The notes under the pieces: model-generated
Databases searched by the model: none
What the model saw: the letters and a program-made list of their open reading frames with translations, nothing else
What the model was told of the DNA's origin: nothing
DNA from: Nitrosopumilus sp.
Lineage (GTDB): Archaea; Thermoproteota; Nitrososphaeria; Nitrososphaerales; Nitrosopumilaceae
Direction: 5' to 3'
Length of the DNA: 64,000 bases
Assembly (NCBI GenBank): GCA_965219345.1
Contig: OZ244732.1
Span: 832,001-896,000 of the forward strand
Shown here: piece after piece, positions 44,822-48,545 of the stretch
How the letters are laid out: the number at the start of each line of letters is the position of its first letter
Numbering within the stretch: position 1 is the stretch's first letter
Made by a program: the position numbers and the translations under genes

Positions 44822-46252
44822 ATGTTGTCACAAGTTTTTCATGATATTGAAAAAAAAATCATTCATTCTTTGCAGCCTGATCAAATTCTAACAATATCTG
44901 AAATTGAAAAACAAACTGGTTTACAATCTGATCAAGTTAGAAGGGGCATTGAATGGTTAAAATTGAAAAATCTTACACATGTGAAAGAATCAACTGATGT
45001 TCATTATCATTTTGGAAAGAAAGGTGATGAAGCTATTGAAAATGGTTTACCTGAAAGAAGATTAGTAAATGAAATTGAAAAAGGAAATACGACTTTTGAT
45101 AGGTTAAAACCCATTTTAGGTTTAGATTTTAATGCAGCTATAGCATATGCAAAAAAGAATAATTGGATCTCTATTTCAAAAAATGAAACATCAACAGAAC
45201 TTTCTTTAAATGAGGTTCATCAAGAATCATTAGAAGAAAAATTTATCCTCGCCAATAAATCTCTTGAAAAAGATAAAACTAATGAAATTAAAGTATCTGC
45301 AGACTCTCTTTTTGCAGTAGCGTCGCTTAAAAAACGTCCTGATTTTATTGTTGAATCGTCATCCATCATCAAAAAAATTTCATTAACTGTTGAAGGCAAA
45401 AAAATCAATTTAGATGGTTTATCTCATTCAAGTGGCGCAATTGATGTTGAAGCAAATGTACCTGAAGTTTTTGCTTCAAGAACCCATCCATTAAAAGACA
45501 CTATTGATGAAATTCGTGAAATTTTTGTTACATTGGGTTTTTCAGAAATTCTTGGAAGTATGACCCAGCCAAGCTTTTGGAACTTTGATGCTCTATTTAC
45601 CCCACAAGATCATCCTGCAAGAGAATTACAGGATACATTTTATCTAGATGGCGTTTCTGCCAAAAAAATTGCAACTCCTGAACAAATTAGAAAAGTCTCT
45701 GAATCCCACAAAAAGAATTGGGGATATCATTGGGATATCAATGAAGCAAGAAAAATGGTTTTAAGAACTCACACCACCTGTGTTACAATTAAACATCTAG
45801 CTGAAACCAAACCTGATGAAGCTAGAGTTTTCTCATTAGGTCGTGTATTTAGAAATGAAAAAGTAAGTTACAAACATCTTGTAGAATTTAATCAAATTGA
45901 AGGAGTTGTTGTAGGAAAGGATGCTAATCTGAGAAATTTAATGGGAATTCAAAGAGAATTCTACAAACGAATTGGAATTACAAAGATAAAATTCTGGCCA
46001 ACATTTTTTCCGTATACAGAACCGTCACTGCAAACTATGGTGTATAATGAAAGATTAGGAAAATGGGTTGAACTATTTGGAATGGGAATTTTCAGACCAG
46101 AAGTAACTAAACCTCTTGGAATTACTAAACCTGTTTTGGCATGGGGTGGCGGTATTGAACGAATTGCAATGCTAAAGTATGGTCTTGATGATGTTAGGGA
46201 ATTTTACAATAACAACTTGAGTTGGCTAAGGAGTGCTAGAAAATGCCAGTAG
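44822..46252 (+). CDS. pheS: phenylalanine--tRNA ligase alpha subunit
   Basis: WNFDALF.PQDHPAR, LRTHTT and FPYTEPS. Confidence 0.98.
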   Translation: MLSQVFHDIEKKIIHSLQPDQILTISEIEKQTGLQSDQVRRGIEWLKLKNLTHVKESTDVHYHFGKKGDEAIENGLPERRLVNEIEKGNTTFDRLKPILGLDFNAAIAYAKKNNWISISKNETSTELSLNEVHQESLEEKFILANKSLEKDKTNEIKVSADSLFAVASLKKRPDFIVESSSIIKKISLTVEGKKINLDGLSHSSGAIDVEANVPEVFASRTHPLKDTIDEIREIFVTLGFSEILGSMTQPSFWNFDALFTPQDHPARELQDTFYLDGVSAKKIATPEQIRKVSESHKKNWGYHWDINEARKMVLRTHTTCVTIKHLAETKPDEARVFSLGRVFRNEKVSYKHLVEFNQIEGVVVGKDANLRNLMGIQREFYKRIGITKIKFWPTFFPYTEPSLQTMVYNERLGKWVELFGMGIFRPEVTKPLGITKPVLAWGGGIERIAMLKYGLDDVREFYNNNLSWLRSARKCQ

Positions 46253-47868
46253 TTGAACTATCCTATACGCGTCTCCAAAAATTGGTTGGCAAAGTAACAA
46301 AAAAGCAAATTTCTGATTCCTTACCGTTTCTTGGATTGGATATTGAATCAGAAAACAAAGATCTAATCCGAATTGAATACAGCCCAAATAGACCTGATTA
46401 TTCAACCGATTTTGGAATTGCGCTTGGATTGCAAGGGTTGCTTGGAATCAAGACTGGAGCAATTAAACTGAAAGTCAAAAAATCAAACAAATATTGTATT
46501 ACTGTAAAATCTCAAGTATCGAAAATCCGTCCTTTTGTAACTGGTATTGTTGCAACAAAGGGAAAAATTGACGATAAAACAATTAAACAGTTCATTACCC
46601 TACAAGAAGATCTTCATTTTGGAATAGGAAGAAAGAGAAAGAAATCATCCATAGGAATTCACGACTTGGATAAGATCACTTTTCCCTTAGTTTACAAAAC
46701 CGCTAATAGAAATCATAAATTCATTCCATTAAACTCTGAAAAAGAACTTTCAATTTCTGAAATCTTTGAAAGCACTGATGTAGGAAAAGATTATGGTTCC
46801 ATACTTGGAAATTCCCCACAAGTACCTCTAATTTTAGACGCAAATCAAAAAACAGTTTCTTTTCCTCCAATAATTAACGCAGCAATAACTACTGTATCAA
46901 CTAAAACAAAAAATCTATTTGTTGAAGTAACTGGAATCAATAAAGAAGATGCTGAAGACATGCTTTCAGTTGTTGCAACCATTTTACAAAGTGCAGGTTT
47001 TACTTTGGAATCAGTTCAAATTTCTGGAGCAAAAAACTCTTCACCAAAACTTGAACAAAAGAAAATGTTTGCAAGTCCTTCCTTGATAAACCAAACACTT
47101 GGTTTGAATCTTAACACTTCAAAGATTATTTCATCATTGAAAAAATCTAGGTTAGATGCATCAACTAAAGGCAAGAGTATTATCTGTACAATTCCTGCAC
47201 ATAGATTTGATATTTTTGGATCAATGGATTTAGTAGAAGAAGTTGCTTTAGGGTATGGAATTCAGAATCTTGAACCTATACTGTCACCTTCTCGAACGTT
47301 GGGCCAAAAACATCCTAGCTCAACTAGTTTACAATCAATTTCTTGTATTATGACCGGATTAGGGTATATGGAAGCCCTAAATTCTAGCTTATCAAGTAAA
47401 AGAATTCTTTATCATAATACAAAAAGAGATTCATCAAAAACCATCTCAGTTTTAGATTCTAAAAGTCTTGAACACACCATTCTTAGAGATTCATTACTTC
47501 CAGGATTAATTGACAGTCTGGCAAAAAACATTCATGAATCATACCCTCAAAAATTATTTGAGATGGGAACTATTTTTAATAAAACAAGTTCTGTAACTGA
47601 AGAAATTCATCTTTGTGCAGTAAGCTCCCATAAAGATGCAAACTTTAGCGAACTAAAATCTGTTTTACAATCTGTTATTCAATCAATATTTGGAAAGACT
47701 TGTGAAACTAAAACCGCCACTTATCCAACTTTTGAAGAAGGACATGTTGCAAATATCACTGTAAATGGGAAAATTATTGGAATCATCGGTGAAATTAGCA
47801 AACCTACTAAAGATAACTTTAGGCTTAGAGAGCCAATAGTTTCCTTTGAAGTAAAACTACCTGGTTAA
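46243..47868 (+). CDS. pheT: phenylalanine--tRNA ligase beta subunit
   Basis: PNRPD, SFPPII, DLVEEVA and LRDSLLPGL. Confidence 0.97.
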   Translation: MPVVELSYTRLQKLVGKVTKKQISDSLPFLGLDIESENKDLIRIEYSPNRPDYSTDFGIALGLQGLLGIKTGAIKLKVKKSNKYCITVKSQVSKIRPFVTGIVATKGKIDDKTIKQFITLQEDLHFGIGRKRKKSSIGIHDLDKITFPLVYKTANRNHKFIPLNSEKELSISEIFESTDVGKDYGSILGNSPQVPLILDANQKTVSFPPIINAAITTVSTKTKNLFVEVTGINKEDAEDMLSVVATILQSAGFTLESVQISGAKNSSPKLEQKKMFASPSLINQTLGLNLNTSKIISSLKKSRLDASTKGKSIICTIPAHRFDIFGSMDLVEEVALGYGIQNLEPILSPSRTLGQKHPSSTSLQSISCIMTGLGYMEALNSSLSSKRILYHNTKRDSSKTISVLDSKSLEHTILRDSLLPGLIDSLAKNIHESYPQKLFEMGTIFNKTSSVTEEIHLCAVSSHKDANFSELKSVLQSVIQSIFGKTCETKTATYPTFEEGHVANITVNGKIIGIIGEISKPTKDNFRLREPIVSFEVKLPG

Positions 47869-47892
47869 TATTTGACTTGGTAGACTATTGTA

Positions 47893-48060
47893 TGCCCTAA
47901 GAGCAACCATGCAGACGGATTGGGATGATGTCGATCGTAATGATGCCAATGATTTCTAATTCACCCAGGCATGGCACATGAGGGCACCCCGGTTTCAGAA
48001 CCCGAAGGAGGTTTTGGCTAAATACCAATGATCTTGTGCGAGTCAGAACCGGGGGACAAT
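47893..48060 (+). ncRNA. candidate structured RNA, two hairpins each followed by ACA (H/ACA-like)
   Basis: Stems TGCCCT/AGGGCA, CCATGC/GCATGG, ATTGG/CCAAT and CCCCGGTT/AACCGGGG; ACA at 47976 and 48056; K-turn-like GGA-GGT...ACC-AAT-GAT; T-tract after. Confidence 0.55.
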
Positions 48061-48118
48061 TTTATTTCCCAAAAATTGAAAAACCATAAAACATCCATCG
48101 ATGATACAAAAAACTGAA

Positions 48119-48187
48119 ATGGTAAATTATTGGTTGGCTAAACAAGAACCCAGTGGACCATGGCAGAGTCTACAAATGAATCAGTGA
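48119..48187 (+). pseudogene. 5' remnant of an EVE-domain protein
   Basis: MVNYWLAKQEPSGP matches the EVE N-terminal YWLxKxEP motif, then diverges and stops. Confidence 0.7.
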
Positions 48188-48545
48188 TATTCTTTGGAGT
48201 ATCAACTATGGGGCTGCCTTAATCCAGACATAATGAAATGCATCAAGGGAAAAGCGGCGGATTGCAGCTATTTATGATCCGAGGTATACTGATTCTGCCC
48301 AGCCACGTTCTATCAATGGTTCCTAATCTTTTTTGTTTTCATATTTCAGAATTAGTTATGTGTCAGAATTATCGTTAAAAGTTTCTCTGTGTAGATTCTG
48401 CCTTTGTCTGTATTTTATCCTCAAAACTTTTCCGATCACGGGCTTTACCTAAAATAGTAACATTTTACTAATATCTGCCAAAAAAGGTTATAAGCATACC
48501 TAAAATGCTCGGTTTATTGATATAGTCGATTTGTTTTATAAATTC

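Follow-up and report, generated by a model that had tools for sequence, protein, structure and literature searches.

Locus and structure of the RNA

The window analyzed here is a 64,000-nucleotide (nt) stretch of the genome of a Nitrosopumilus sp. (contig OZ244732.1). In this window, the genes pheS (positions 44822 to 46252) and pheT (46243 to 47868), both confirmed by Pfam, the latter by the families tRNA_synthFbeta, B5, and B3_4, precede an RNA gene of ~165 nt that occupies positions 47894 to 48058 of the plus strand and encodes two hairpins of the H/ACA type. An earlier note on this DNA had described the region as a GC-rich block with nested stems, free of open reading frames (ORFs) and located right after pheT. 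The GC content was indeed 0.49 to 0.50 over positions 47900 to 48049 versus ~0.27 to 0.36 in the flanking DNA, and the stems were found to covary. The block is not free of ORFs, since a minus-strand ORF of 43 amino acids (aa) at 47897 to 48028 overlaps it. We read the block as noncoding because single-base insertions and deletions occur among relatives, with a gap at one alignment column in 8 of 30 sequences.

The position after pheT was also accurate, the block beginning 26 nt past the stop codon of that gene, but it proved to be incidental. The upstream flank is shared with the window in only 2 of 30 loci, indicating that the RNA is not an appendage of pheT. Alignment of 30 sequences of the genus revealed an abrupt onset of similarity at GCCC and an equally abrupt end at the second ACA, with unalignable flanks, so that the edges of the GC-rich, conserved gene are sharp. 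An A/T-rich box (TWTTTAG or TTAATATT) begins 28 to 30 nt upstream of GCCC in 29 of the 30 genus loci, a spacing that would correspond to the distance between the archaeal TATA box and the transcription start. In the window, this TATA-like promoter box is TTAATATTT (47865 to 47873, plus strand); its first residue lies 29 nt ahead of the G of GCCC, and the box shares residues with the stop codon of pheT. A T-rich tract, TTTTATTT (48060 to 48067, plus strand), lies directly 3′ of the second ACA and is likely an archaeal termination signal.

The secondary structure was derived by hand, and its covariation was scored against 500 shuffled alignments and slid controls. The RNA consists of two H/ACA hairpins, each comprising a lower stem, a pocket, an upper stem carrying a kink turn (K-turn), and an ACA box, with an outer helix enclosing hairpin 1. 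In the genus alignment (30 sequences), 96.8% of the cells were paired and 11 pairs were doubly changed, values reached by none of the 500 shuffles, with at most 4 pairs in the slid controls. In the alignment of the family Nitrosopumilaceae (29 sequences), which was fitted to a covariance model and hence favors the structure, 91.1% of the cells were paired and 33 of the 44 pairs were doubly changed (0 of 500 shuffles; at most 13 pairs in the slid controls). The lower stem, pocket, and upper stem of both hairpins were all backed by covariation. The earlier note had left the strand uncertain because of a C-UUCG-G loop on the minus strand, and this loop was found in only 1 of 30 relatives. Conserved G·U pairs, for example between columns 27 and 71 and between columns 33 and 65, were present in all 30 genus sequences and would be A·C mismatches on the minus strand, indicating that the RNA is read from the plus strand.

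The K-turn motifs noticed previously were confirmed, as was the presence of the word CCAATGAT in both hairpins (47946 to 47953 and 48025 to 48032). In each hairpin, a conserved GA on the 5′ strand lies opposite a 3-nt bulge and a conserved GA on the 3′ strand; by the K-turn consensus, these residues presumably form noncanonical, sheared G·A pairs. The canonical stem is distal in both K-turns, which we take to be the arrangement of archaeal H/ACA RNAs. The base of the upper stem, set by the onset of covariation, and the distal G·A pair are 9 positions apart in both hairpins. According to the passages of PMC7075261 that deal with guide geometry, this distance should be 9 to 10 positions and the target uridine should be located 15 ± 1 residues from the ACA box.

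All of the elements described below are on the plus strand. The outer helix P0 pairs GCCCU (47894 to 47898) with AGGGC (47981 to 47985), the latter located in the hinge; double changes were found at all five pairs in the family, and the helix lengthens to ~10 bp in other families. It is followed by a leader or internal-loop strand, AAGAGCAA (47899 to 47906), in which AGAGCA is kept in most of the family. In hairpin 1, the lower stem P1 (47907 to 47912 with 47969 to 47974) was doubly changed at 3 of 7 pairs in the genus and at 6 of 7 in the family. The pocket is formed by the 5′ guide strand PS1, AGACGGA (47913 to 47919), and the 3′ guide strand PS2, UUCACCCAG (47960 to 47968). The upper stem P2 (47920 to 47925 with 47954 to 47959, the 3′ strand containing UCUAA) covaries, for example by replacement of U-A by C-G. 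It leads to the nonbulged K-turn strand UGA (47926 to 47928), which would contribute a U·U pair and then G·A and A·G pairs, GA being conserved opposite NNUGA, and to the bulged strand AAU-GA-U (47948 to 47953). The apical stem-loop beyond the K-turn (47929 to 47947) is dispensable: the K-turn of hairpin 1 is replaced by a short K-loop in some genera of the family (five members, L064 to L067 and L075). The ACA box of hairpin 1 (47976 to 47978) was present in 75 of the 75 rows that have this hairpin.

In hairpin 2, the lower stem P1 (47987 to 47994 with 48047 to 48054) was doubly changed at two pairs. The upper stem P2 (48000 to 48007 with 48033 to 48039) was doubly changed at 6 of 6 pairs in the family, in which 81% of its cells were paired. 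Between the two stems are the 5′ pocket strand UCAGA (47995 to 47999) and the 3′ guide PS2, GAGUCAG (48040 to 48046). The K-turn comprises GA on the nonbulged strand (48008 to 48009) and AAU-GA-U on the bulged strand (48027 to 48032), with the C-stem and its apical stem-loop (48010 to 48026) beyond it. The second ACA box (48056 to 48058) was ACA in 77 of 80 rows and AUA in the remaining 3. Thus, as claimed from the sequence of the window, both hairpins end in ACA.

Complementarity to the 23S rRNA

An RNA of 165 nt is expected to contain ~2.7 nine-mer complements to 4.6 kb of rRNA by chance (our own arithmetic). Complementary words located anywhere in the RNA are therefore uninformative, and only matches of the pocket strands carry weight. 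The earlier note had named several conserved 23S rRNA words to which the two hairpins would be antisense, and all of these words were found in the 23S rRNA of the organism itself.

For hairpin 1, the words GACGG at 47914, TCTAA at 47955, and ACCCAG at 47963, which are present at these positions, had been joined into an antisense of the peptidyl transferase center. Positions 2672 to 2687 of the 23S rRNA read CUGGGU-UUAGA-CCGUC (CTGGGTTTAGACCGTC), a site that is unique in the rRNAs. ACCCAG (47963 to 47968) forms six Watson-Crick pairs with CUGGGU (2672 to 2677), and GACGG (47914 to 47918) forms five with CCGUC (2683 to 2687). These two words are on the pocket strands. The third, UCUAA (47955 to 47959), was rejected as a guide word, since these residues make up the 3′ side of P2, covary with their partners, and change across the family. 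RACGG was found on the 5′ pocket strand in 76 of the 80 genomes tabulated, and ACCCA preceded ACA by exactly 13 nt in 74 of these genomes and in all 75 rows having hairpin 1. Among 200,000 random guides, 379 matched the rRNAs by a two-part, 6-plus-5 Watson-Crick pairing with a gap of 2 to 6 nt. Positions 47917 to 47919 and 47960 to 47962 could form three further pairs, which never covary; covariation starts only at 47920/47959, which puts the upper-stem base and the distal G·A pair 9 positions apart, in keeping with the rule.

The uridine converted by hairpin 1 would most likely be U2679, the third U of GGGUUUAGA. As described for stem-loop 1 of sR-h45 from Haloferax, the first two of three consecutive U residues pair with two A residues of the 3′ guide and the third, U2605, is converted (PMC7075261). 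The assignment of U2679 as the equivalent of Haloferax pseudouridine (Ψ) 2605 is favored by homology and by spacing, since U2677, U2678, and U2679 are located at 13, 14, and 15 residues from ACA, respectively. The guide has a C opposite the second U, where Haloferax has the second A. Two relatives of family f9 (L118 and L119) carry an A at this position (AACCCAG in the 3′ guide), which would pair the first two U residues in the manner described for Haloferax. The spacing to ACA is 14 in relatives with an A at the equivalent of position 47962. U2678 is a possible target instead, because in the Haloferax experiments in vitro reported in that article, the unpaired U lying furthest 5′ in a run was modified (PMC7075261).

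For hairpin 2, the words of the helix 69 to 71 region named in that note, TCTGACTC and TAGCCAAA, are located at positions 2012 to 2019 and 2028 to 2035 of the 23S rRNA, respectively. The 3′ guide GAGUCAG complements CUGACUC (2013 to 2019) on the 3′ side of helix 69. This site is the sole perfect 7-mer complement in the rRNAs and is followed by a U. This residue, U2020, would be placed at the pocket. Of 79 genomes, 54 have GAGUCAG as the heptamer, 16 have GGGUCAG, and 6 have CAGUCAG; the GUCAG core was found in 78 of these genomes across the order, and it preceded ANA by 14 nt in all 80 rows. The spacing from the paired residue 48040 to ACA is 16 residues, which fits the 15 ± 1 rule. The geometry of the RNA, which the earlier note had judged to be incompatible with a standard pocket, thus roughly follows the H/ACA rules, with 13 to 14 nt and 16 nt to ACA in hairpins 1 and 2, respectively, and the distal G·A pair at 9 positions.

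A single 3′ guide directed at helix 69 has been described for sR148 of Sulfolobus islandicus, which targets U2060 (E. coli 1917, yeast 2260) and U2066 (yeast 2266); in that description, the duplex at U2066 comprises only 6 bp and deletion of sR148 abolishes both pseudouridines (PMC11077068). U2020 is located six nt past the second U of the UNU motif in the helix 69 loop, as is U2066 relative to U2060. By this analogy, hairpin 2 would probably present U2020 as the counterpart of S. islandicus Ψ2066 and yeast Ψ2266. The second U of the UNU motif is taken here to be E. coli 1917, based on the E. coli helix 69 sequence. Both target regions of the organism's own 23S rRNA were unchanged in 4 further genomes and helix 69 in 13 more, including 2 with an intron after CUCUC. 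Overall, helix 69 did not differ among the 18 genomes of the order that were examined, including G000, and the stretch 3′ of it was identical in the 15 genomes without an interrupting intron, the other three being G056, G041, and G068.

The apical loop of hairpin 2 carries GGCUA (48016 to 48020), which complements UAGCC at positions 2028 to 2032 of the 23S rRNA, 8 nt 3′ of U2020. This loop motif was found in 59 of the 79 genomes having hairpin 2 (30 of 30 in the genus, 21 of 24 in other genera of the family, 6 of 6 in family f15, 0 of 6 in f4, and 0 of 3 in f14), and the surrounding stem covaries. A complement located within 40 nt 3′ of the target was obtained for 6,859 of 200,000 random 5-mers. 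A speculative reading, which we consider rather unlikely, is a three-part recognition, in which the 3′ guide pairs beside U2020, the GGCUA loop beyond the K-turn pairs with positions 2028 to 2032 in place of a 5′ guide, and the outer helix fixes the two ribonucleoprotein (RNP) modules relative to each other. Such partly remote, three-part recognition is not known to have been described for H/ACA guides. If this speculation were correct, the RNA would dock helix 69 and the strand leading toward helix 70/71 during assembly of the large subunit, and the joining of guides for the peptidyl transferase center and for helix 69 within a single RNA would be of ancient origin and shared with Halobacteria.

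Intron-like insertions adjoin helix 69 in the 23S rRNA genes of four relatives, G068 (L087/L088), G126 (G126:C8:398982-399423), G056 (L269), and G041 (L270). The break lies between GGUA and GCCAAA in G068 (~675 nt) and G126 (~270 nt) and right after CUGACUCUC (following CUCUC), one nt past the predicted target U, in G056 and G041 (~700 to 740 nt). The 23S rRNA of the window's own genome is without these insertions. Comparison of the GGCUA loop with the introns splitting GGUA^GCC revealed no correlation, the motif being lost in G068 and kept in G126.

Searches for other targets were performed with both hairpins. The best matches of a canonical scan, at positions 1317 of the 16S rRNA (GGUGAA-UA-CGUC) and 915 of the 23S rRNA (GCUCGC-UA-GUUC), 10 bp each, were rejected because the guide positions involved (47960 to 47962; 48000 to 48001 and 48038 to 48039) vary or covary as stem pairs. 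Wobble-tolerant scans with the core of hairpin 2 plus AGA gave no canonical rRNA site, and no convincing target was found among 46 tRNAs. The leader word AGAGCA, whose complement UGCUCU is located at position 521 of the 16S rRNA beside UAGCC, was rejected as a guide, as this match is at chance level. Among relatives L004 to L031, the leader and lower stem read AGAGCAGGC, and most members of the genus have a 9-nt complement to positions 518 to 526 (GCCUGCUCU) of the 16S rRNA of the organism. Just 6 nt of it are present in the copy of the window itself, and the match is within chance expectation by estimate.

Distribution, expression, and interpretation

A BLAST search recovered the element from 33 of the 36 genomes that represent the genus besides that of the window, and from none of 24 that represent other families of the order. 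A covariance model, R1, was built from the 30-sequence genus alignment and run with strict filters, such that misses in distant genomes do not show absence. Of 150 other genomes in the family, 144 were matched; omission of three genomes flagged as unpublished (G137, G152, and G153) gives 141 of 147. The matches cover 26 of 27 genera including that of the window. In the order sample, 78 of 151 genomes were matched. Families f4 (9/9), f9 (11/11), and f6 (2/2) were matched completely, and f14, f15, f7, f12, f10, f8, f19, and f20 were matched partly. Matches were also obtained in 3 of 47 genomes from other orders of the class Nitrososphaeria; these three retain GUCAG or GUUAG and, where the match includes hairpin 1, RACGG and ACCCAG. 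In two relatives of genus g9 of family f9 (L121 and L137), the hairpins are split by an A/U-rich spacer or were matched as two adjacent hits. In several Nitrososphaeraceae-like genomes (L122 to L124, L126, and L127), hairpin 2 alone is recognizable, either with another 5′ hairpin in front of it or with no hairpin there. The hairpins therefore seem to be modules able to evolve separately.

The genome of the organism encodes the four core proteins of H/ACA particles, namely, Cbf5 (TruB_N, in a 343-aa frame), Nop10p, Gar1, and L7Ae, all four Pfam families scoring above the curated cutoffs. Such proteins from Pyrococcus or Methanocaldococcus are reported to work with guides of foreign origin (PMC11077068 and PMC7075261). 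The element is also represented in RNA libraries. The contigs concerned are from relatives in metatranscriptomes and reveal presence in RNA libraries, not strand, ends, or level. In library X4, 33 contigs matched the element, 29 of them at an identity of at least 95%, with a cover confined to positions 47892 to 48059 and a summed word depth of up to ~2,470. In library X9, which was treated with DNase, a 181-nt contig spans positions 47913 to 48058 and an additional 31 letters of the relative's 5′ part. The contigs of both studies end at 48058 to 48059, one X4 contig carrying eight A residues after 48059. No X4 or X9 contig covered the pheT side (47700 to 47891) and none in X4 extended past 48059, observations that were not used as evidence. 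In X5, a single 4.1-kb contig runs across the whole left part and past the element, and X1 is probably DNA; the other runs contained small shares of the query words. Together, these results indicate that the RNA gene is very probably expressed.

Downstream of the RNA, a 22-codon ORF (MVNYWLAKQEPSGP…) at positions 48119 to 48187 of the plus strand is the 5′ remnant of a gene encoding an EVE-domain protein. A full copy of this gene (~146 aa; Pfam EVE match at 3e-40 in L004) directly follows the small RNA (sRNA) in 28 of the 30 aligned sequences, the exceptions being L002 and L009. Similarity to the relatives ends at position 48160 in the genome of the window, where the EVE gene appears to be truncated and the sRNA is intact. 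The words GGCUAAA and AACCCAG at 48130 to 48155 were considered as a second RNA and rejected, since they are within the EVE remnant. The ~370 nt from 48160 to 48530 contain no ORF of at least 60 aa and have no similarity to the loci of relatives; this segment, which precedes an Lrp/AsnC-type gene starting at 48531, may be the scar of a rearrangement.

The observed structure and conservation, the complementarity of the pockets to the organism's own 23S rRNA, the genes of the core proteins, and the presence in RNA libraries lead us to consider it highly probable that positions 47894 to 48058 of the plus strand encode a stand-alone, double-hairpin box H/ACA guide sRNA that directs pseudouridylation of the 23S rRNA at two sites. 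L7Ae would bind the K-turn of each hairpin, and Cbf5-Nop10-Gar1 would bind each lower stem and ACA box. Opening of the pocket of hairpin 1 would allow ACCCAG and GACGG to pair with the 23S rRNA, leaving UUAGA unpaired at the base of the upper stem, with U2679 as the most likely residue to be converted. Hairpin 2 would act by its 3′ guide alone, GAGUCAG on positions 2013 to 2019 presenting U2020. The guide departs from classic H/ACA RNAs in how many target nucleotides hairpin 1 leaves unpaired and in the 3′-only guide of hairpin 2.

Several observations weigh against this interpretation. Hairpin 1 leaves five target nucleotides (UUAGA, 2678 to 2682) unpaired rather than two, and the spacing from ACA to the last of its paired guide bases is 13 nt (14 if position 47962 opposite U2678 is counted), just under the expected 15 ± 1. 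A canonical scan requiring exactly two unpaired target nucleotides returned only 10-bp matches at other sites. The numbering of the sites in E. coli terms, in which U2679 would be position 2586, is an assumption. Hairpin 2 has no conserved 5′ guide, its 5′ pocket strand keeping only AGA, with no conserved complement 3′ of U2020, and a C at 48040 in 6 of 79 genomes mismatches the unchanged 23S rRNA. A 7-mer match followed by a U was obtained in the rRNAs for 11,246 of 200,000 random guides (~0.06), so that the case for hairpin 2 rests on conservation, fixed spacing, and agreement with a site documented elsewhere. The target sites are invariant, so that guide and target offer no covariation. The folding energy was unremarkable, with nonsignificant z scores of −1.19 and −0.72 for the plus and minus strands, respectively; a single sequence taken alone proves little. 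DNA can occur in RNA libraries, and the contigs show neither strand, ends, nor level.

The earlier note had hesitated between an atypical guide and an rRNA chaperone. Our results favor a modification guide, and the other possibility, that an H/ACA-type RNP binds to pre-23S rRNA and chaperones its assembly or folding but leaves it unmodified, at least as far as hairpin 2 is concerned, appears unlikely. It would find a parallel in the eukaryotic snR30/U17, with the 3′ strand of helix 69 and the UAGCC segment as the bound regions here. It would also account for the lack of a 5′ guide in hairpin 2 and for the conserved GGCUA loop complementary to positions 2028 to 2032, and pairing of the guide would be in competition with folding of the helix 69 stem. 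However, the strict spacing of GUCAG to the ACA box, 14 nt in all rows, is of the kind that matters for placement of a uridine in the active site of Cbf5, and the site addressed by the two-part guide of hairpin 1 carries a modification in Haloferax. An RNA with only a 3′ guide is, in addition, a proven guide at the equivalent site of S. islandicus, as reported in the relevant passages of PMC11077068. We regard as slightly less likely still that hairpin 1 is a true guide and that the match of hairpin 2 to helix 69 is fortuitous, hairpin 2 being an orphan or aimed at a tRNA, an mRNA, or another sRNA. The chance level of the 7-mer and the variation of positions 48040 and 48041 (CA, CU, and GU) against an unchanged target would agree with a fortuitous match, as would the tRNA and CRISPR RNA (crRNA) targets also described for S. 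islandicus H/ACA RNAs (PMC11077068). This alternative is difficult to reconcile with the GUCAG core in 78 of 79 genomes across the order, with the status of the site as the only perfect 7-mer complement in the rRNAs, followed by a U, and as a known pseudouridine position in two other organisms, with the nearby complement of the loop motif, and with the lack of a comparable site in the 46 tRNAs.

It is very improbable that the element does not belong to the H/ACA class at all. Its UGAUG-like words resemble C boxes, yet no CUGA is found opposite the UGA motifs, which are K-turns within hairpin stems, arguing against a box C/D sRNA. Such an sRNA would pair a C box (RUGAUGA) with a D box (CUGA) and have 12-nt guides that end at D or D′. 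The overlapping 43-aa ORF could suggest a minus-strand RNA or a small protein gene, but the conserved G·U pairs exclude the minus strand and the one-base insertions and deletions are incompatible with coding. A cis-regulatory leader could be considered in view of the EVE-domain gene located downstream in relatives. Against this, the RNA is intact in the window despite truncation of that gene, the upstream neighbor differs among relatives, and the RNA library contigs end at ACA. A guide for two sites of the 23S rRNA thus remains the favored interpretation. It provides two testable pseudouridine predictions for the ribosome of globally abundant ammonia oxidizers.

Comparison with known guide RNAs

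The Rfam scan proposed in the earlier note was performed with Rfam 15. At the gathering thresholds, the window gave only three tRNA matches, none of which was on the element; at E values of up to 10, only chance matches to microRNAs and sRNAs were obtained, far below threshold and none on the plus strand of the element. The hairpin architecture, the position of the K-turn or K-loop, the ACA box, and the core protein genes are those of H/ACA RNAs. A lower stem that covaries and an ACA box are present in both hairpins and distinguish the RNA from the atypical guides of the Pyrobaculum/Sulfolobus type, with which hairpin 2 has only the single 3′ guide in common. We found no description of an H/ACA guide RNA from Thaumarchaeota or Nitrososphaeria in open-access text (supplements excluded). 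A survey published in 2012 states, in the passages devoted to this class, that Euryarchaeota were at that time the only archaea with known H/ACA RNAs, that Rfam did not contain these archaeal RNAs, and that its data contained no thaumarchaeal sequence with an annotated snoRNA (PMC3486863). The 2024 study of Sulfolobus describes the crenarchaeal H/ACA RNAs as single-hairpin molecules, with other phyla still to be surveyed (PMC11077068, in part). The RNA reported here would be an example of a double-hairpin H/ACA RNA outside Euryarchaeota. It defines a class-wide, easily recognized RNA family, now with a covariance model, that could enter Rfam and serve genome annotation.

The lower stem, pocket, K-turn or K-loop, and ACA box are arranged as in the Pyrococcus RNAs Pab40/Pf7 and Pab35, according to the portions of PMC2377435 describing them. 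In the same source, Pyrococcus H/ACA sRNAs contain one to three hairpins per RNA, and their targets concentrate in domains IV and V of the 23S rRNA. Unlike the present RNA, the Pyrococcus guides presented there are two-part and leave two target nucleotides unpaired (PMC2377435). They have no detectable sequence relation to the RNA of the window. An outer closing helix is not described for the Pyrococcus RNAs in these passages of PMC2377435.

The closest likeness in targets is with Haloferax sR-h45, in which, as described in PMC7075261, stem-loop 1 makes Ψ2605, the third of three U residues, and stem-loop 2 acts on helix 69. Both RNAs combine two K-turn H/ACA hairpins in one molecule, the 5′ hairpin aimed at GGGUUUAGACCGUC of 23S domain V and the 3′ hairpin at helix 69. 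This likeness concerns target regions and hairpin order, as taken from the description in that article (PMC7075261). The two RNAs differ in the connection between the hairpins, a hinge of ~8 nt plus the outer helix here versus a 56-nt linker in Haloferax, and in the C opposite the second U, which leaves five rather than two target nucleotides unpaired. They also differ in the helix 69 target: hairpin 2 addresses the 3′ strand (U2020) without a 5′ guide, whereas the Haloferax RNA addresses loop residues U1940 and U1942.

Hairpin 2 most resembles S. islandicus sR148, which also has a single 3′ guide, no 5′ guide, and a helix 69 target. The duplexes are of similar length, 6 to 7 bp here and 6 bp in sR148, and U2020 and U2066 are both located six nt past the equivalent of position 1917. 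Unlike sR148, hairpin 2 is built on a lower stem of 8 bp, keeps its ACA box at a fixed spacing, and is accompanied by a partner hairpin, and a second target at the equivalent of E. coli 1917 would obtain only four contiguous pairs, as determined by hand. The RNA would be an intermediate form, combining the classic lower stem and ACA box with a 3′-only guide, which bears on the evolution of atypical guides.

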